From an archaeon (GTDB lineage Archaea > Iainarchaeota > Iainarchaeia > Iainarchaeales > CSSED10-239): a DNA stretch of 9,440 bases. The stretch's first letter is position 1. Every line of letters begins with the position of its first letter. Location: contig JBAWVI010000033.1 in NCBI GenBank assembly GCA_037147375.1, positions 1 through 9,440 on the forward strand. The letters are read 5' to 3'. Position numbers and translations under genes: made by a program. This document shows positions 65-9,341 of this stretch, one piece after another. The notes below the pieces were generated by a model. It was not told the origin of the DNA. It was given only the letters and a program-made list of their open reading frames with translations, and searched no databases.

Positions 65-265
65 ATGGGAGTTATGAATATTTTTAATAAATTACTTTAC
101 GATAAAAAAGCACAACTCTCTGTTGAATATCTTATAATGATTGTTTTTGGAATGATGCTTGTTATTACTACAGGTATTGTTATTATTAACTTAAGTAGTC
201 TTGTTAGTGTTGCAAAAGCAAAGATATTAACTTATAGAGATAATATACTTTCATCTTTTTTATAA
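65..265 (+). CDS. Short archaeal type IV pilin-like protein (class III signal peptide, DUF361-type)
   Basis: The N-terminus reads ...YDKKA|QLSVEYLIMIVFGMMLVITTGIVII. It has basic residues at -2/-3, Ala at -1, Gln at +1 and Glu at +5, then a hydrophobic helix of about 20 aa. The mature part is only about 50 aa. The ATG at 74 (MNIFNKLLYDKKA|Q) is a plausible alternative start. Confidence 0.7.
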   Translation: MGVMNIFNKLLYDKKAQLSVEYLIMIVFGMMLVITTGIVIINLSSLVSVAKAKILTYRDNILSSFL

Positions 266-299: not shown

Positions 300-1433
300 A
301 TGTTTAATTTTGCATTATATTCTTTTTTAGTTACTTCTCTTTTTCTAATTATCTTTTGTGTATTTGATCTAAAATATAGAGAAATACCAAATTATCTTGT
401 TTTTTTATTTTTTGGAATTGGTTTAGTATCAAGCATAACTATTAGTTTTTGGTTATGGAACTTTTCTTATATCTTAAATTCATTAATATCTATTGCAATA
501 ACTTTTATTATAACATTTATACTTTGGGAACTAGGTTTATTTGCTGGAGGAGATTTAAAGGTGTTTGTAGGCATCTCTGCATTAAACCCATTAAACCTCA
601 ACTTCTTAGGATCTGTGCTAACGTTTGGAGTAATTAAGCAACCAATTTTTGGAATAACCTTAATCATAGCAAGCATATTGTGTACTTTGCCATATATTCT
701 ACTATTTTCAACCTATAAGATAATTACAAAAAACTATTTTAAATATTTATTCGTAACTTATTTTTCTAAGAACAATCTAATTGCAATTTTCAATGCAATA
801 ATTATATTATTTTTAATAACTTCTTTTATGAATGTTTTCTCACTTAAAACCCCGGTAATTTTAATTTTATTATTATCTTTAGTTCTAATATTTTTGTTTT
901 CAAACATATTAATTTATAGTAAAAAAACATTTTATTTATCTATTAGTTCTTTATATCTTATTTTTATTGTTTGTGTTTGGCTTTCAACTACCCCACTAAA
1001 AACAATTTTTATTTTTTCAGATTTTCTTTCAATAATTATAGCTGTATTAATAATTTACTTATTAATTATGTTATATAAATTTACAAAAGAAAAAATACTT
1101 GTACAAGATTCTAAAATTACAGATCTAAAAGAAGGAGATGTGACTTATTATAATTATTACTTAGTAGATAAGAAGGTAATACAAAAAAAAAGTACTTTTT
1201 TCTCAGCAATTAAAGATATGTTGAGCGGGAATTACTATAAAGACCAAATAATTGATTCTAGAAAAGCAGGTGGCTTAAATAAGAAAGAAGTTACCTTTTT
1301 AAATGATTCATATTATAATAAATTAATAAGTAATACTATAAAAATAAAAGTAACCATTGCATTCACCCCATCAGTATTAATTGCATATATCTTGCTTAAT
1401 ATTTTTGGAGATGTAATTTGGTTAATATTTTAA
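300..1433 (+). CDS. A24-family aspartic prepilin/preflagellin peptidase (EppA/FlaK/PibD-like) with a long C-terminal extension
   Basis: The first catalytic motif is FDLKYREIPN (Asp23, codon 366-368). The second is AGGDLKVF (GxGDxK type, Asp85, codon 552-554). The spacing resembles that of characterised archaeal enzymes. The protein is polytopic. A GGAG sits about 10 nt upstream of the ATG. The gene lies among prepilin genes. Confidence 0.85.
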   Translation: MFNFALYSFLVTSLFLIIFCVFDLKYREIPNYLVFLFFGIGLVSSITISFWLWNFSYILNSLISIAITFIITFILWELGLFAGGDLKVFVGISALNPLNLNFLGSVLTFGVIKQPIFGITLIIASILCTLPYILLFSTYKIITKNYFKYLFVTYFSKNNLIAIFNAIIILFLITSFMNVFSLKTPVILILLLSLVLIFLFSNILIYSKKTFYLSISSLYLIFIVCVWLSTTPLKTIFIFSDFLSIIIAVLIIYLLIMLYKFTKEKILVQDSKITDLKEGDVTYYNYYLVDKKVIQKKSTFFSAIKDMLSGNYYKDQIIDSRKAGGLNKKEVTFLNDSYYNKLISNTIKIKVTIAFTPSVLIAYILLNIFGDVIWLIF

Positions 1434-1445
1434 ATGTGAAAGATT

Positions 1446-1907
1446 ATGACTTTAAGTAGAAAAGGACAAATTGCAATTGAATATATAATTTTCATAGCTA
1501 TCTTTTTATTGTTTTTTCAAGCAATGGTTAAACCATCAATTGATTTTGCAGAATATGTAATTAATGATGTTCAATCTGTTGCAGTAACACAAGAAAACAT
1601 AAGTAAGTTAGCAAATAATATTAGTTCTTTTGCATCATCTATGGGTACAGGTAGTGTTACAATGAACTTCTATTTACCTAGAACTGCAATTTTAAAAAGT
1701 TGTAATTCAAATGAAATAGCTTATGAAGTTGAAATATCTAATATTAATCCAAAACCAGTTGGTTGTCCAGGAAGTATTTGTAAATTCACAAAGGATATAT
1801 TTATTGGTGGTAATGCAATTAACTGTGATGTTATTGGCCCAGGGTTTACTGGGGTATTAGTTATTGAAAAAAGCGATACAGGAGCTTTCGATGTTTCAAT
1901 CCAATAA
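1446..1907 (+). CDS. Archaeal type IV pilin-like protein (class III signal peptide) with a Cys-containing globular domain
   Basis: The leader is MTLSRKG|QIAIEYIIFIAIFLLFF: 7 aa, Gly at -1, Gln at +1, Glu at +5, then a hydrophobic helix. The C-terminal part of about 100 aa looks beta-rich. It has 4 Cys (86, 107, 112, 127) and two N-x-S sequons. Confidence 0.75.
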   Translation: MTLSRKGQIAIEYIIFIAIFLLFFQAMVKPSIDFAEYVINDVQSVAVTQENISKLANNISSFASSMGTGSVTMNFYLPRTAILKSCNSNEIAYEVEISNINPKPVGCPGSICKFTKDIFIGGNAINCDVIGPGFTGVLVIEKSDTGAFDVSIQ

Positions 1908-2244
1908 AGCACAAACAAGTATAGAATTTATTATTCTTGTAGCGATCTTATTATTAATAGGATTTTACTTTATTGGTGCAATCTATAAAACATTTGATAG
2001 TACTTACGCAGTTTATACTATTAAAAACAGAACCTTACAATTACTTTCAGAAAACGATAGTGAATACGTTTTATCTAAAATTAATTATCAAATAAATAGT
2101 TCTGATATTAATCTAACTTTATATCTTATTGATTCGAATTCAAATAGTTTTGATTTAAACGAATCATATTATGCAAACGATATAACAGATATACAAGGTA
2201 GAACTAATTTTAGTAATGTGGGGCTTGTTTTTAGGTATATTTAA
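1891..2244 (+). CDS. Archaeal type IV pilin-like protein (class III signal peptide), rich in N-glycosylation sequons
   Basis: Starting at the ATG at 1891 gives MFQSNKA|QTSIEFIILVAILLLIGF. This is a 7-aa leader and an exact Q-x-S-x-E-x-x-x-L motif. The longer ORF from 1864 would give an atypical 16-aa leader. The gene overlaps the previous gene by 17 nt out of frame. The mature part carries six N-x-S/T sequons (NRT, NDS, NSS, NLT, NES, NFS). Confidence 0.7.
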   Translation: MFQSNKAQTSIEFIILVAILLLIGFYFIGAIYKTFDSTYAVYTIKNRTLQLLSENDSEYVLSKINYQINSSDINLTLYLIDSNSNSFDLNESYYANDITDIQGRTNFSNVGLVFRYI

Positions 2245-2260
2245 TTGGGTGTGATTATAA

Positions 2261-2827
2261 ATGATTGATAAAAACATAGTGTATATTGAAATTATCTTTT
2301 TATTAGGTGTTTTATTAAACGTTTTTGTGCCTCGCAATATATTTTTAAAGATTTTAATTGTAATTGTATTATTTTTATTTGTAATTAAAGAGATTGATGA
2401 TTATAAATACATTAAACAAAAGTATTTGTATGTTGGGTATGGTTTTGTTGTACTATTAATTTTATTTATTATTACAGAATATATAATTAATATTTACTAC
2501 ATTGCAGCATTAATTTGCTTAGTTGTTATTTATTTATATTTATTCAAAGTTTTATTTAATACAACCTATGGTAAAGTAATTAAGGTTAGTAAAGGGAAAG
2601 TAAGTATACAAGTTTGCGATCCTTTTTATAAGACAAAGAAAGAGCTTGATTTAAGTTATTCTGGAAAAATAAAAAAAGAAGATCTTGTAATACTTGAATT
2701 AACTAAGTTTCCAATAAATAAAAAAATAACTAGAATAATTAAAGTTATTTCTGAGGAAAAAGAAGAAGCTATAGAAATTAAAAAACCAGAAGTAAAAACC
2801 ACTAAAAAAGTGAAGAAAAAGAAATGA
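2261..2827 (+). CDS. Hypothetical 4-TM membrane protein with a small C-terminal beta-rich domain and a Lys-rich tail
   Basis: There are four hydrophobic segments (about aa 6-24, 27-42, 56-72, 76-98). They are followed by YGKVIKVSKGKVSIQV...DLVILEL, a pattern like a small beta-barrel, and then by EEKEEAIEIKKPEVKTTKKVKKKK. A GGGTG sits upstream of the ATG. The stop overlaps the next start (ATGA at 2824-2827). I recognised no confident family. Confidence 0.55.
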   Translation: MIDKNIVYIEIIFLLGVLLNVFVPRNIFLKILIVIVLFLFVIKEIDDYKYIKQKYLYVGYGFVVLLILFIITEYIINIYYIAALICLVVIYLYLFKVLFNTTYGKVIKVSKGKVSIQVCDPFYKTKKELDLSYSGKIKKEDLVILELTKFPINKKITRIIKVISEEKEEAIEIKKPEVKTTKKVKKKK

Positions 2828-3192
2828 ATGAGATTGCATTTAAGAGAATCATAATAATTTCTTCTATAATTGGCTTGATCTTACTTATTATTTATTCCTT
2901 ATTTTTTGTTCCTAAAGAACAAACAATTTATAATCTTTCAAATTTAAAAGAAGGAACAATTATTTCTGTAACAGGGATAATTAAAGATGTATCTGTAAAT
3001 AATAACTTTATTACCTTTAGCTTTTGCGAGAACACAAGTTGCATTCAATCAATACTCTTTAATCCAAGTAGTAAGCAAGCAGATCTAATAACAAAATATA
3101 GTACTACAAAAGAGAGGGTTGTAATTTCTGGGCAATATAAAAAATATATGGATATTCCAGAAATAATTATATACAACATAAAGAAAATATGA
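2824..3192 (+). CDS. Membrane-anchored OB-fold-like protein (single N-terminal TM, domain predicted extracytoplasmic)
   Basis: The N-terminus is MNEIAFKR plus a TM (IIIISSIIGLILLIIYSLFFV). The body is LKEGTIISVTGIIKDVSVNNNFITFSFCENTSCIQSILFN...RVVISGQYKKYMDIPEIIIYNI. This is the alternating strand pattern typical of tRNA-anticodon-type OB folds. ATGA overlaps occur at both ends (2824-2827 and 3189-3192). Confidence 0.55.
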   Translation: MNEIAFKRIIIISSIIGLILLIIYSLFFVPKEQTIYNLSNLKEGTIISVTGIIKDVSVNNNFITFSFCENTSCIQSILFNPSSKQADLITKYSTTKERVVISGQYKKYMDIPEIIIYNIKKI

Positions 3193-4373
3193 TTTTAATT
3201 GAAATACTTATTGGTGTCTTGCTTGGTTTTGTAATTGGATTAATCCCAAGTATGCACATAAATACAATTTCCTATTTTTTTATATTTATTGGAGGATATG
3301 AGCTTTTATATAATAATTCTTATTTTTTTATATCTCTTGCGGTATCTCAATTAATAACAAGTTATATTTCTATTTCTGCTTTTGGGGTTCCAAATGATTC
3401 TACTATTATGCATTTATTTCCACTTCAAAGATTATCTAAAGAAGGAAAACTGAAAAAGGGTGTGTATTTGTGTTTAGTTGGTTCTTTTTTTGGAGGTGTT
3501 TTTTCATTATTACTTTTTCCTGTACTTTATTTATTATTTAGTACATTATTTGATTTTAATTTGTTTATTTATGGGTTGATTATTTTAATTTTAATAATGT
3601 TTGTGATCTTAGAAAAAACATTTAAAAAAAGATTTGCAATTATTTCAATAATTTTGCTTTCTGGTGTTCTTGGAATCTTTACACTTAAATATAATTATTA
3701 CATTTCAGAACCTTTAATGATTTGTGTTGTTGGTTTATTTGCGTTTCCATTTATATTAGAATCAATTTTTTCTAAAACTAAATTTATTAAGCAAAAGGAT
3801 TGCGACGTGGAACTTAATTTTAAAGAAACAAGCATCTCTTCTTTTCTAGGAACTGTTGGATCTTTATTTATGATACTTATTCCCTCATTTAGTTCATCTC
3901 AAGCATCATTGTTAATATCTAAAATTAAAAAACAGATAGATACTGATGAATATTTAATTATTTTTTCAAGTGTTGCAATAAGTGCTTTATTTTTTTCATT
4001 TTTTCTTGCAATTAATTTTTATAAGCCAAGGCTTGGGTACATAGCAATTCTTTTATCAAATAATATCATTGGAAATAGTGTTTCTAATTTTAGTTTAGGA
4101 TTAACTTTATTTTTATCACTTTGTTTATCTATACTCTTAGTATCTATGTTTTACAAAAAGATAATTGATTTTATTTCAAGATTAAATTTAAGGCTTATTA
4201 ATATATCTTTAATTGTTTTTATTTTTATCTTAATTATTATGTTGTTTGGAATAAAAGCAGTTCCTTTGTTAATATTATCAACCTTGATTGGGTTTCTTCC
4301 TCTTGTTTTTGGAGTTGATAGAGTTATCTTAATGAGTTATATTATGATTCCAACCATTTTATTTTATATTTGA
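3189..4373 (+). CDS. Polytopic membrane protein, TctA/DUF112 (COG1784)-like putative transporter subunit
   Basis: The 394-aa protein has roughly ten hydrophobic segments. The N-terminal GLIPSMHINT resembles the GL-PG-H-NT motif I recall in archaeal DUF112 proteins. LCLVGSFFGGVFSLLLF resembles the TctA GSFxGG segment, which follows a charged loop (LSKEGKLKKG). The family assignment is from memory of motifs only. Confidence 0.55.
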   Translation: MILIEILIGVLLGFVIGLIPSMHINTISYFFIFIGGYELLYNNSYFFISLAVSQLITSYISISAFGVPNDSTIMHLFPLQRLSKEGKLKKGVYLCLVGSFFGGVFSLLLFPVLYLLFSTLFDFNLFIYGLIILILIMFVILEKTFKKRFAIISIILLSGVLGIFTLKYNYYISEPLMICVVGLFAFPFILESIFSKTKFIKQKDCDVELNFKETSISSFLGTVGSLFMILIPSFSSSQASLLISKIKKQIDTDEYLIIFSSVAISALFFSFFLAINFYKPRLGYIAILLSNNIIGNSVSNFSLGLTLFLSLCLSILLVSMFYKKIIDFISRLNLRLINISLIVFIFILIIMLFGIKAVPLLILSTLIGFLPLVFGVDRVILMSYIMIPTILFYI

Positions 4374-5144
4374 TTTTCTTGCAGCGAAATTAAACATCCA
4401 ACTAATTATCCAGGATTTTAATAACCAAACAAGGAATTTATTTTTAAATCCAGGTATGTACACACAACTTCTTTTTTCTATCTTCTTAAGAGATCTTTTT
4501 ACAACCCTATCTACCTTCATCCAAAATATATTTGGAACAAATGTTGCATCATAATTTTTAAAGAAATCAGTTTTAGTAAACCCAGGACATAAGGCTTGAA
4601 TGTGCACATTAAAATTATTAACCTTCATCTCATCAATTAATGTTTCAGTAAATATTCTTATATATGCTTTAGTTGAATTATAGATTGCATTACTTTTACT
4701 TGTTGTTATAAAAGATGCAATGGATGATACATTAATTATGTACCCTTTCTTGTTTTTAATCATTATAGGTAATATAGCTCCAGTTAATTGAGTTGTTGCA
4801 AATACATGAACAAATATTTCTTCTCTTGCAATTTCTTGATCCATTTCATAAAAGTATTTTTGAGTACTAAAACCAGCACAGTTAATTAGATATTCAATAT
4901 TTTTAATTTTAGAAATTTCAATAATGATTCTTTTAATTTCAAGTTCTTTTGATAAATCGCAAGGATGTGATATGCACTTAACCTTATATTTTTCTTGAAT
5001 GTTTTTAGATATCTTTTCAAGTTCTTCCTTTCTTCTAGCAATAAGCACAATATTATATCCTTTCTTTGCAAGCTGATTTGCAAACTCAAGCCCAATTCCA
5101 CTTGATGCCCCTGTAACTATTGCATAATTATTGTTCATATCCAT
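4359..5144 (-). CDS. Classical short-chain dehydrogenase/reductase (SDR) of unknown specificity
   Basis: Motifs present: TGASSGIG (TGxxxGxG), NCAG, the NVSS serine, YNSTK (YxxxK) and CPG. The C-terminal tail is hydrophobic or amphipathic (FLVWLLKSWIISWMFNF). The maximal ORF reaches 5171. Starts at 5144 (MDMNNNYAIVTG) or 5138 (MNNNYAIVTG) fit the usual SDR N-terminal length better. Confidence 0.9.
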   Translation of the reverse strand: MDMNNNYAIVTGASSGIGLEFANQLAKKGYNIVLIARRKEELEKISKNIQEKYKVKCISHPCDLSKELEIKRIIIEISKIKNIEYLINCAGFSTQKYFYEMDQEIAREEIFVHVFATTQLTGAILPIMIKNKKGYIINVSSIASFITTSKSNAIYNSTKAYIRIFTETLIDEMKVNNFNVHIQALCPGFTKTDFFKNYDATFVPNIFWMKVDRVVKRSLKKIEKRSCVYIPGFKNKFLVWLLKSWIISWMFNFAARKSNIK

Positions 5145-5209
5145 CCCTTCTTCAATTATTCTAATTATCAAACAGTTTAATAATTATTTTGTTTTGTATA
5201 TTAATTGTT

Positions 5210-5614
5210 ATGAGTATTAAAACTTCAAATTGGAAAATAAATCAAGAGGTTCTAGAATCCATAATGGAATTTTCTAAAAGCTTTTTTCCTCTGGAATTTT
5301 CTGGACTTCTTTATTGTGATATAGATAAACAAATAATTACAGATATATATATTCTTCCTGGAACACATAGTGGAAGAACAAGTGCTGTTCTTCGTATGGA
5401 TCTTGCACCAATGACCTTTAATTTAGCTGGCTCAGTTCATTCTCATCCATCAGGACAGGGAAACGCATCAGACGCTGATCTTAACTTCTTTTCAGGAAAG
5501 CAAATAAACATAATTGCATATCCTCCTTTCTCTCAAGAATCCTATAAAGCATACAATAAGCAAGGAGAGTTAGTTGAAATTAAGGTAATTTCTAAAGAAA
5601 AAACTAAGATTTAA
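5210..5614 (+). CDS. Stand-alone JAMM/MPN+ (Mov34) zinc metalloprotease
   Basis: The JAMM motif H-x-H-x7-S-x2-D is complete, read as HSHPSGQGNASDAD (nt 5438-5479). The upstream Glu lies in FPLEFSGLL. The size is about 134 aa from the ATG at 5210. The ORF extends to 5189, but that start adds a hydrophobic MFCILIV prefix and nearly abuts the divergent SDR gene. Confidence 0.85.
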   Translation: MSIKTSNWKINQEVLESIMEFSKSFFPLEFSGLLYCDIDKQIITDIYILPGTHSGRTSAVLRMDLAPMTFNLAGSVHSHPSGQGNASDADLNFFSGKQINIIAYPPFSQESYKAYNKQGELVEIKVISKEKTKI

Positions 5615-5629
5615 TGATAGTTTTATAAA

Positions 5630-5643
5630 CTTTTCCGGAAAAG
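5630..5643 (+). promoter_or_regulatory. Perfect 14-nt palindrome CTTTTCCGGAAAAG, either a terminator-like hairpin after the JAMM gene or a dimeric-regulator operator upstream of grpE
   Basis: Read directly. It is the only GC-containing island in the AT-rich 141-nt spacer. It has imperfect flanking complementarity (ATAAAC...GGTTTTAT) and is followed by the T-tracts TTTTATTACTTTTG. Confidence 0.35.
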
Positions 5644-5679
5644 GTTTTATTACTTTTGTATTCTATATTAATTTAGTTA

Positions 5680-5745
5680 TTAAATCAAATAAGTATTTAA
5701 ATGAAATAATAACTTAATTTTCTAAAGGTACAGTAAATTTAAAGG
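5680..5745 (+). promoter_or_regulatory. Candidate archaeal promoter region for grpE-dnaK-dnaJ (TATA-like elements and a near-perfect direct repeat)
   Basis: TTAAATCAAATAA (5680-5692) and TTAAATGAAATAA (5697-5709) match at 12 of 13 positions and start 17 nt apart. AATTTAAA at about 5735-5742 lies roughly 25 nt upstream of the ATG at 5765. That spacing fits a TATA box driving a leaderless or short-leader mRNA. Confidence 0.3.
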
Positions 5746-5764
5746 ACAGCTATTAGTGGATATT

Positions 5765-6268
5765 ATGGATGATACAAACAATAAACAAGAAGAAAGAGAT
5801 ACAAATCAAGAAACTACAAACCAAGAATTAGAATCATTAAATCAAAAGGTTTTAGAGTATGAAGATTTATTGAAAAGAACACAAGCTGAATTTGTAAATT
5901 ATAAAGCAAGAGTTACAAAAGATGTGCAAGATATAGTTTTCTTACAAACTAAAGTAATTGCTCTTGAAATGATTTCATTTAAGGAACTATTACTACTATC
6001 AATGAAGAATGAAGAACATGAAGAAACAAAAAAAGTATTAGAATTATTACTTGAAAAAATAGAGGGTTCTCTTGTAAGACTAAGGATTGAAAAAATAAAA
6101 TTAAATGAGGGTACACCAGATTATAATTTATGTGAATGTATTAGTACAGTTCAAACAAAGAACAAAGAAGAAGATAATAAAATTATTGATGTGCTTGAAG
6201 ATGGATATTTATATAATAACAAATTAATAAAACCCGCAAAAATAATATTAGGAAGATTGGAGGAATAA
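5765..6268 (+). CDS. grpE: GrpE nucleotide exchange factor
   Basis: An acidic or polar N-terminus is followed by the coiled-coil motif LLKRTQAEFVNYKARVTKD (GrpE AEF-N-YRKR signature). The C-terminal beta domain reads IIDVLEDGYLYNNKLIKPAKIILG (the GY...R/KPA motif). The gene lies immediately upstream of dnaK. The GTG at 5756 is an alternative start. Confidence 0.85.
   Translation: MDDTNNKQEERDTNQETTNQELESLNQKVLEYEDLLKRTQAEFVNYKARVTKDVQDIVFLQTKVIALEMISFKELLLLSMKNEEHEETKKVLELLLEKIEGSLVRLRIEKIKLNEGTPDYNLCECISTVQTKNKEEDNKIIDVLEDGYLYNNKLIKPAKIILGRLEE
6259..6263 (+). promoter_or_regulatory. Shine-Dalgarno-like GGAGG for dnaK
   Basis: The GGAGG lies inside the last codons of grpE, 8 nt before the dnaK ATG at 6272. 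The grpE stop and the dnaK start are only 3 nt apart. Confidence 0.6.
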
Positions 6269-8107
<1,839 letters not shown>

Positions 8108-8136
8108 TTTCTTCTTTTAATTTTTATTTTTAATTT
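8108..8136 (+). terminator. Oligo-T-rich tract after dnaK (possible partial archaeal terminator or attenuator before dnaJ)
   Basis: TTTCTTCTTTTAATTTTTATTTTTAATTT directly follows the dnaK stop codon. Archaeal termination typically occurs at T-runs. The AT-rich background lowers the significance. Confidence 0.25.
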
Positions 8137-8150
8137 GGATTTGAAGTTGT

Positions 8151-9341
8151 ATGTCTGAGAAAAAAGATTATTATAAACTACTTGGAATAAATAGGAATGC
8201 AAGTATTGATGATATTAAAAAAGCATATAGAGAGCTTGCAAAAAAGTATCATCCAGACATAGCTGGACCAACAGCTGATGCTGAAAAATTCAAAGAAATA
8301 AGTAATGCTTATTCTGTTCTCTCTGATGACACAAAAAGAAAACAATATGATACTTTTGGAGAGGATATTGGATCAAGTCAAGGTGCTGGAGGCCAAGGAT
8401 ATTATAGTCACCAAGGATTTGGTGGAGGCTTTTCACAAGGTTTTTCTGGGTTTGATTTTAAAGATATTTTTTCTCAGTTCATGGAAGAAGAGGAAGAAGA
8501 AGATGAAGGTGGCTTCTTTAGTAGATTTACTAATAATCAAAGAACTAGAAGATCAAGATCAGGAAATTCACAAGATCTTAATTTAGTTTATAAAATTGAA
8601 ATTGATTTTAAAACCACGTATGCTGGCGGTAAAGAAAAATTAGATATTCATAAAGAAGGATTATGTGAATCATGTTCAGGAAGTGGTTCTGTTTCTGGCA
8701 AAAAGGTAGTTTGTGACTCGTGCCATGGAAAAGGAAGAGTAGTAACTTCAAGAAGAACTCCTTTTGGAATGTTTGCAGTTCAATCAACCTGCTCTAAATG
8801 TAATGGAGAAGGAGAAACAATCTCTGATCCTTGTAAGAAGTGTTCTGGAAAAGGTTATGAAAAAATAAAAAGAACAATCTCTGTTGATATTCCTGCTGGA
8901 ATAAGCGAAAACGATGTTATTAGGGTTAGAGGAGAAGGAAATGAAAGAGAACAAGAGAAAGGGGATTTATATTTAAAAATAAGTGTTAAAGAAAATGATT
9001 TCTTTACACGTAAAGATAAGGATCTTTATTGTGATGTTCCTATTCCTTTTACTGATCTTGTACTTGGAACTGGTTTTAAGTTAAATCTATTTGGTAATCA
9101 GGTTAAGATTAAAATTCCTGATCACACAAAAGCAAATACTATTATAAAACTTAAAGGAGAGGGCTTTCCAGATGTTAAGGGTAGTGGAGGAGCAGGATCT
9201 TTATTTGTGAAAGTAATTCCTGAAGTTCCAGATAAGATGAGTAATGAATACAAGGATTTAATCAAGTCTCTTTCAAAGATTGAGGAAGCAACAATTAAGA
9301 AAGAAATTAGAAAAAGACATAGCGAATATATTGTTGATTAA
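8151..9341 (+). CDS. dnaJ: Type I Hsp40 co-chaperone DnaJ
   Basis: The J domain reads DYYKLLGI...YHPD (HPD at nt 8250-8258). A G/F-rich linker contains a DIF motif. There are four CxxCxGxG zinc-finger repeats ([32 protein letters not shown]; nt about 8664-8855). A C-terminal client-binding domain follows. Confidence 0.97.

Follow-up and report, generated by a model that had tools for sequence, protein, structure and literature searches.

The archaeal DNA considered here, 9,440 nucleotides (nt) of contig JBAWVI010000033.1 (below, the window), carries three closely packed open reading frames, ORF1, ORF2 and ORF3, at the downstream end of a pilus gene cluster. ORF2, a membrane-anchored OB-fold protein, and ORF3, a TctA-like membrane protein, resemble in family, architecture and gene order a pair of Methanococcus maripaludis proteins that are essential for natural transformation. 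The locus is best read as a complete Epd-like ("system 1") type IV filament (TFF) operon, at the tail of which the pair is transcribed, preceded by ORF1. By analogy with the methanogen system, we think the chances about even that the trio is a pilus-coupled nucleic-acid uptake module. Its genes and junctions are as follows.

2261..2827, plus strand: ORF1, 188 residues, four transmembrane (TM) helices and a C-terminal OB-like barrel
2824..3192, plus strand: ORF2, 122 residues, one TM helix and one OB fold
3189..4373, plus strand: ORF3, 394 residues, TctA-like/DUF112 polytopic membrane protein (PF01970)
2824..2827, plus strand: ATGA stop/start overlap of ORF1 and ORF2, identical in loci L001, L003 and L009
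3189..3192, plus strand: ATGA stop/start overlap of ORF2 and ORF3, identical in loci L001, L003, L004 and L009

How DNA enters the archaeal cell during natural transformation is an open question, since archaea lack ComEC, and the sole candidate so far rests on one genetic study in methanogens. Independent evidence now comes from comparing the window with its relatives. Within a single DPANN class, the candidate pair has been drawn into the operon of just the kind of pilus on which transformation depends. Elsewhere the pair is conserved across DPANN archaea and some bacteria, and it occasionally travels with ComEA-like and nuclease genes.

A first-pass annotation of this DNA had described the trio as joined by the two ATGA overlaps and as starting 16 nt past the last pilin gene. 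All of this was confirmed, the pilin gene ending at 2244 and ORF1 starting at 2261. It offered two readings, a TctABC-like tripartite transporter and an uptake module associated with the pilus. The second fits much better, supported by the Methanococcus precedent (PMC10133366) and by the survey of gene neighbourhoods described below, and it is for nucleic acid as the cargo that we give the even chance stated above.

The ORF2–ORF3 pair and its Methanococcus precedent

ORF3 matches the Pfam TctA family (PF01970) with 87 bits (cut-off 28.9; E=1.4e-24) over profile positions 2–422 of 423, and all the ORF3 homologs found carry PF01970. The assignment to TctA/DUF112 in the first-pass annotation, made from the motifs GLIPSMHINT (from residue 17) and VGSFFGG (from residue 97), is thereby borne out. 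The protein has about 10–11 TM helices, comprising ten hydropathy peaks and one amphipathic helix (residues 44–65) seen in an AlphaFold2 model built from 87 homologs (pLDDT 88.3, pTM 0.88). Its N-terminal half (1–200) aligns with its C-terminal half (201–394) in hhalign (P=0.0018 over 155 columns), and the segments GLIPSMH (17–23) and LIPSFSS (230–236) occupy equivalent positions, after the first helix of each half and before a short broken helix; together these features point to an internal duplication. Residues G9, P20, H23, P78, G162, F184, Q202, P232, R281 and G368 are invariant in 87 archaeal and bacterial homologs. A Foldseek search with the model gave no solved structural relative (best E=0.023, TM-score at most 0.26), and phmmer against the sequences of the Protein Data Bank (PDB) found nothing, so that there is no mechanistic template for ORF3.

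The public gene call for ORF3, P0001 (410 residues), corresponds to ORF3 with 16 additional residues, the TGA at 4371–4373 being read as Trp (4371–4421); this extension is apparently a code-4-type gene call. Judged from its relatives the TGA is a genuine stop, because all homologs end in LFYI, and homologs of ORF1 and ORF2 stop at the same place with TAA or TAG.

ORF2 begins with a signal-anchor TM helix (residues 9–27), followed by an OB domain at about 47–121. Its own match to PF01336 is sub-threshold (21.2 bits against a cut-off of 27; E=2.9e-4). PF01336 is matched by 11 of the 16 family members, however, with a best E=9.7e-10, and PF13742 by five, so that on profile evidence the OB fold is solid at family level, as the first-pass annotation had proposed for this TM-tethered domain. 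A search of PDB sequences with phmmer found nothing for ORF2, and faint, sub-threshold matches to DUF4131 (E=0.064) occur in two of the 16 relatives. The OB domain contains a Cx4C pair (C68 and C73; window 3025–3042) that is invariant in all Iainarchaeial ORF2 homologs and missing from the Nanoarchaeota-type partners described below; it may form an extracytoplasmic disulfide or a metal site. The flank of the TM helix is mildly basic on the N-terminal side and neutral to acidic on the C-terminal side. In bacteria, the corresponding partners of TctA-like proteins carry a cytoplasmic-type zinc ribbon before the TM helix, with five Lys/Arg residues just before the helix in loci L024 and L025. For both reasons ORF2 is predicted to have its N-terminus inside, with an OB domain that probably faces outward.

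The precedent for this pair is a study in which transposon mutants of M. maripaludis were screened for defective transformation (Fonseca et al. 2023; PMC10133366). The genes hit in the screen included the Epd pilus genes epdA, eppA and epdJKL, a thermonuclease, and two adjacent genes, MMJJ_13020, encoding an OB fold with one TM helix, and MMJJ_13030, whose TctA-like product has 11 TM helices. In-frame deletion of either of the adjacent genes abolishes natural transformation, and both deletions were complemented (PMC10133366). A TctA-like homolog is also essential for transformation in M. thermophilus, and the authors, who note that archaea are without ComEC, TctB and TctC, put the TctA-like protein forward as the transporter of DNA in archaea (PMC10133366).

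The window pairs a TctA-like protein of about 11 TM helices with an adjacent single-TM OB-fold gene that overlaps it by 4 nt. We infer that ORF2 and ORF3 are the Iainarchaeial version of this archaeal anchored-OB and TctA-like pair, orthologous to that of Methanococcus. It is because ORF2 and ORF3 match a pair essential for transformation that nucleic-acid uptake is favoured here over transport of the citrate type. The first-pass annotation had held that no partner subunits are described for the DUF112 proteins of archaea; MMJJ_13020 is such a partner (PMC10133366). No literature was found that follows up the 2023 study or describes the module in DPANN archaea, a search combining DPANN with TctA giving only a primer sequence. 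A single-sequence search with ORF3 and the best 120 of 403 profile-search matches contained DPANN and Chloroflexota-type members only; no named member of the Methanococcales appeared among those 120, nor in a cluster look-up.

The pair beyond Iainarchaeia

The association of an OB-fold gene with a TctA-like gene extends across phyla, and is observed directly in the gene order. Among 80 Nanoarchaeota-type metagenome loci, 67 have at least 400 nt of sequence upstream of the TctA-like gene. An ORF2 homolog immediately precedes the TctA-like gene in 26 of the 67, at a spacing of −13 to +41 nt and often with an overlap, and in about 12 more it lies within 3 kb. Two archaeal loci, L012 and L013, have a 116-residue TM-OB protein preceding the TctA homolog, and a third, L014, has a 208-residue protein with a TM helix and two OB domains in the same place; a hidden Markov model (HMM) of the ORF2 family detects these partners at E=1.8e-8 (L012/L013) and E=8.6e-4 (L014). 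On the GC-rich archaeal contig of L014 (27–4996) the pair divergently adjoins genes for a transglutaminase-core protein and a 712-residue T2SSE-family ATPase. The small ORFs intervening in that cluster are without class III signal peptides, and it was not counted as a pilus link.

A bacterial branch of TctA-like relatives belongs to Anaerolineae, Thermoflexales and Kiritimatiellia, according to a look-up of cluster names. In each of the four Chloroflexota/Kiritimatiellia loci, a gene for a protein with a zinc ribbon, a TM helix and OB domains either immediately precedes the TctA-like gene or is separated from it by one gene. The OB domain is single in L017 and multiplied in L018, L024 and L025, up to about five-fold. 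The survey for TM-OB partners that the first-pass annotation had suggested has thus shown that the pair recurs in Nanoarchaeota-type and in Chloroflexota/Kiritimatiellia loci.

Some of the neighbours concern nucleic acids. The Anaerolineae-type locus L018 (1544–5320) encodes, consecutively, a 626-residue protein with a zinc ribbon, a TM helix and about five OB domains, a 160-residue TM-anchored HHH_5 protein of ComEA-like architecture (31.3 bits against a cut-off of 27), and the TctA-like protein; by analogy it looks like a bacterial competence-like set that is independent of ComEC. In two of the 80 Nanoarchaeota-type loci a secreted SNase homolog (PF00565, 80 bits) is encoded directly upstream of the TctA-like gene (L052:2479–2892 and L046:799–1437). 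These HHH_5 and SNase neighbours, together with the thermonuclease found in the Methanococcus screen, suggest a nucleic-acid theme.

Pilus genes do not follow the pair into these settings. The 80 Nanoarchaeota-type loci contain no match to ORF1, T2SSE, T2SSF or pilins and a single A24 peptidase, and no TFF genes were found near the pair in the Chloroflexota contexts examined. In the Nanoarchaeota-type loci, in L012–L014 and in the Chloroflexota/Kiritimatiellia loci the pair is kept without a pilus context.

The same distribution bears on whether the trio is anything more than inherited synteny, that is, three functionally independent proteins with unrelated roles. All pilus-linked cases come from one class, in which the block is syntenic as far as the unrelated JAB, GrpE and DnaK genes, kept there by shared ancestry, and within that class neither the pilus link nor the membership of ORF1 in the operon can be separated from common descent. 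For ORF2 and ORF3, however, shared descent fails to explain the pairing, because it recurs, its stop and start codons overlapping, in different contexts, phyla and domains, and for these two genes independence is largely refuted. For the trio as a whole we consider it improbable.

The pilus operon in Iainarchaeia

The window is AT-rich (GC about 0.21–0.34) and closely syntenic with metagenome-assembled genomes of Iainarchaeota/Diapherotrites (DPANN). Upstream of the trio it carries the following genes.

65..265, plus strand: small pilin-like protein, 66 residues, class III signal peptide; weak PF04021 match (E=0.0042)
300..1433, plus strand: archaeal prepilin (class III signal) peptidase, EppA/FlaK-like; PF01478 Peptidase_A24 45.4 bits, PF06819 Arc_PepC 33.4 bits
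1446..1907, plus strand: pilin, 153 residues, class III signal peptide; PF04021, E=2.4e-4
1864..2244, plus strand: last pilin gene; PF04021 29.4 bits against a cut-off of 23.7

The peptidase is of the A24 type with an archaeal C-terminal domain, both of its Pfam scores exceeding their cut-offs; EppA is its best NCBIfam match, yet far under the cut-off (44 against 450 bits). The small pilin-like gene is kept at the equivalent position in L001–L004, L008–L010 and L023, and the 153-residue pilin is syntenic across all Iainarchaeial loci. The last pilin probably starts at ATG 1891 (MFQSNKAQ/TSIEF) rather than at TTG 1864 of the mechanically called ORF, because homologs begin at the equivalent Met and the class III signal motif is placed accordingly. 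From ATG 1891 the gene would overlap the end of the preceding pilin gene (1907) by 17 nt.

The order pilins, peptidase, pilins, ORF1, ORF2, TctA is kept in all ten Iainarchaeial loci with intact genes and enough sequence (L001–L007, L009, L010 and L023), so that the three genes do co-occur in other genomes, as the first-pass annotation required of them. The junctions within the trio are overlaps or gaps of −32 to +10 nt, and the order persists at identities down to about 45% for TctA and 22–32% for ORF2. ATGA overlaps alone are commonplace; it is the conservation of the gene order, and the recurrence of the OB and TctA-like pair in unrelated contexts in other phyla, that goes beyond chance.

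The ATPase and platform genes of the filament lie outside the window and are known from syntenic loci. In L023 the array is complete, its genes running in one direction and separated by short gaps: a T2SSE ATPase, two T2SSF proteins, pilins, the A24 peptidase, two pilins, ORF1, ORF2 and TctA. L010, a complete Forterrea genome, also has two T2SSF genes. According to a 2026 survey, archaeal TFF system 1 is recognised by its two platform genes; the Epd pilus of Methanococcus belongs to it, and it occurs in DPANN archaea (bioRxiv 10.64898/2026.04.22.720090). With the peptidase and three or four pilins in the window, and T2SSE and T2SSF supplied by L023 and L010, the operon belongs to this Epd-like system. 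The uptake reading is strengthened by this arrangement, because the pilus functions recovered in the Methanococcus screen here lie in cis with the pair. Both the fusion to the pilus operon and ORF1 are seen only in Iainarchaeia.

In one further locus, L008 (5620–7180, in an Iainarchaeon metagenome-assembled genome, on a 671-kb contig), an in-frame stop interrupts the ORF2 homolog, and stops or frameshifts break the TctA homolog into three or more ORFs, whereas ORF1, the pilins and the peptidase are intact. The OB/TctA pair may be decaying jointly, or the assembly may be wrong here. Damage limited to ORF2 and TctA would fit a loss of the two genes together.

Could the trio instead serve the filament itself, in the assembly, anchoring, modification or function of an Epd-like pilus, with the transformation defect of the Methanococcus mutants an indirect effect? 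In favour of this, the trio closes a complete TFF operon in every Iainarchaeial locus, closely packed and in the same direction. Pili are, moreover, essential for archaeal transformation, and the 2023 study reports no piliation data for the OB and TctA mutants (PMC10133366). Outside Iainarchaeia, however, the pair occurs without TFF genes nearby, as the Nanoarchaeota-type loci with their one A24 peptidase and the Chloroflexota contexts make clear, and its HHH and SNase neighbours point to nucleic acid, not to filament assembly. Nor are TctA or OB-fold proteins mentioned in the text of the 2026 survey of TFF systems (bioRxiv 10.64898/2026.04.22.720090). A role confined to the pilus is in our judgement unlikely, although it deserves to be kept in mind.

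ORF1, a lineage-specific protein

The first-pass annotation was right that ORF1 is a small protein with four TM helices, but this is not all that it contains. In the AlphaFold2 model (pLDDT 69) the helices are followed by a five-stranded β-barrel (101–163) and a disordered, Lys-rich tail (166–188). Foldseek matches of the model are all to OB, S1 or cold-shock folds (aIF5A, aIF1A, S17, CspA and RPA32), and are weak (best E=2.5e-3). The C-terminal domain is strongly basic throughout the family, with 10–18 Lys and Arg against 2–7 Asp and Glu. Since it is so basic and follows four TM helices, the soluble part is predicted to be cytoplasmic, and probably is.

An exhaustive HMMER scan of 1.84 billion proteins gave 12 representative clusters for the ORF1 family, all confined to Iainarchaeia and of 163–197 residues except for one 82-residue fragment, and outside Iainarchaeia the ORF1 HMM detected no counterpart in the loci searched. 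ORF1 has no above-threshold Pfam or NCBIfam match. Neither it nor 11 family members match TctB (PF07331) at E≤1, ten of the members having been searched at E≤10. Membership of DUF2101 (PF09874), an uncharacterised archaeal membrane-protein family on which no literature was found, was considered and not accepted: three members (P0165, P0166 and P0172) gave co-linear but sub-threshold matches (14.3, 11.7 and 6.8 bits against a cut-off of 22; protein about 8–125, profile 38–164 of 206), and ORF1 of the window gave none. If these matches were real, ORF1 could have distant euryarchaeal relatives. A likeness to NfeD-like proteins, which combine TM and OB parts, was also considered, but no PF01957 match supports it.

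These properties also bear on the reading that the first-pass annotation placed first, in which the trio is a non-canonical tripartite transporter of carboxylates or other small metabolites, with ORF3 as carrier, ORF1 standing for TctB and the OB domain of ORF2 for TctC. In its favour, ORF3 scores above the Pfam TctA cut-off along its entire length, ORF1 shares with TctB a count of four TM helices, and the predicted fold of ORF3 is carrier-like, the citrate and dicarboxylate carriers CitS and VcINDY being among its top Foldseek matches, which are weak and not significant. No member of any of the families shows similarity to TctB (PF07331) or TctC/Bug (PF03401), however, so that two of the three defining features of a TctABC-like architecture fail. 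The OB partner is widespread, but ORF1, with its 12 clusters among 1.84 billion proteins, stays within a single lineage and so is no general third subunit. The partners' OB domains come from families that bind nucleic acids (PF01336/PF13742); bacterial partners have up to about five copies, HHH or SNase proteins accompany them, and the only available genetics ties the pair to DNA uptake (PMC10133366). We therefore hold a small-molecule transporter to be quite unlikely.

A model for nucleic-acid uptake

A nucleic-acid uptake module could work as follows. The pilus would capture extracellular nucleic acid and bring it to the membrane, where the outward-facing OB domain of ORF2 would bind it. ORF3 would provide or gate passage through the membrane, and the basic OB-like domain and Lys-rich tail of ORF1 would receive the strand on the cytoplasmic side. 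ORF1 may on this model be a new, lineage-specific component whose basic domain receives the substrate inside the cell. For a DPANN archaeon with a reduced genome, the main benefit may lie as much in scavenging nucleotides as in recombination.

Several considerations weigh against this reading. The likeness to MMJJ_13020 and MMJJ_13030 rests on Pfam families, architecture and gene order, and not on alignment or phylogeny. M. thermophilus has no clear OB homolog, and the phenotypes of the M. maripaludis mutants, reported with neither piliation nor DNA-binding data, could be indirect (PMC10133366). About 40% of the Nanoarchaeota-type loci have no OB gene within 3 kb of the TctA-like gene. OB folds also bind oligosaccharides, proteins and metals; TctA is a secondary-carrier family for small carboxylates, and the ORF3 model, an internally duplicated bundle with short broken helices, looks more like a carrier than an obvious DNA pore. 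For ORF1, the structural matches are weak (E≥2.5e-3) and the topology is drawn from charge bias only.

A wider proposal is more tentative. The OB and TctA-like pair may be a ComEC-independent nucleic-acid importer of archaea, present also in Chloroflexota and Kiritimatiellia, which in Iainarchaeia has become a pilus-coupled, three-protein translocon feeding a nucleotide-poor cell. Its parts would be an external OB receptor (ORF2), a TctA-like conduit (ORF3) and an internal, OB-like, Lys-rich acceptor (ORF1), and its substrate would be environmental or host DNA or RNA. We regard this as possible, with the balance of probability somewhat against it.

The locus adds ORF1 as a new putative third subunit, along with invariant residues such as H23, Q202 and R281 in ORF3, and for DPANN biology a concrete candidate route by which such cells might acquire nucleotides or genes. 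The label "tripartite tricarboxylate transporter permease", as applied to archaeal proteins of about 400 residues, is probably misleading as to function.

Flanking genes

Downstream of the trio, a convergent short-chain dehydrogenase (SDR) gene on the minus strand (4359–5171) shares 15 nt with the 3′ end of ORF3; it is present in most of the syntenic loci and absent in L002, L004 and L006. It is followed at 5189–9341 by a JAB/MPN-domain gene and then grpE-dnaK-dnaJ, an arrangement syntenic across Iainarchaeia. In L023 (12543–20609) the JAB gene and grpE are separated by an inserted gene for a 2688-residue surface-type protein, which has a C25 propeptide, CHB_HEX and Fn3-associated repeats. Neither Rfam families nor tRNAs were found in the window.

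Comparison with known systems

Three known systems invite comparison. With the tripartite tricarboxylate transporter TctABC (TTT family, TC 2.A.80) the locus shares three co-transcribed genes, for a small 4-TM protein, a protein with an extracytoplasmic domain and a large permease, and ORF3 and TctA are both members of PF01970. Bacterial TctA has about 500 residues and 12 TM helices, whereas ORF3 is a short form with 394 residues and about 10–11. The external domain of ORF2 is a membrane-tethered OB fold, in contrast to a binding protein of the Bug type, and a scan of nine window proteins gave no match to TctC/Bug (PF03401). ORF1 differs from TctB in carrying an additional soluble, OB-like domain.

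With the ComEA/ComEC machinery and its competence pilus the locus shares a logic: a pilus with its prepilin peptidase, an anchored extracytoplasmic domain that binds DNA, and a polytopic membrane protein. ComEC itself opens with a TM and OB module (DUF4131). No window protein matches the ComEC competence domain (PF03772), however, and the window is without an HHH protein, one being present in the bacterial locus L018. The resemblance is one of analogy and not of family membership.

The M. maripaludis pair shares with ORF2 and ORF3 both architectures, both Pfam families, their adjacency and the position of the OB gene upstream of the TctA-like gene. M. maripaludis likewise encodes an Epd-type pilus and an EppA-like peptidase, and TctB, TctC and ComEC are absent from both. 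In M. maripaludis, however, these gene sets lie in separate locus-tag ranges (0828x, 1056x–1058x and 1302x–1303x), whereas here the pair is fused to the pilus operon, ORF1 with its four TM helices and OB-like domain is added ahead of it, and the host is a DPANN archaeon. The Iainarchaeial locus is best regarded as a variant of a known system, set apart by the pilus fusion and by ORF1.

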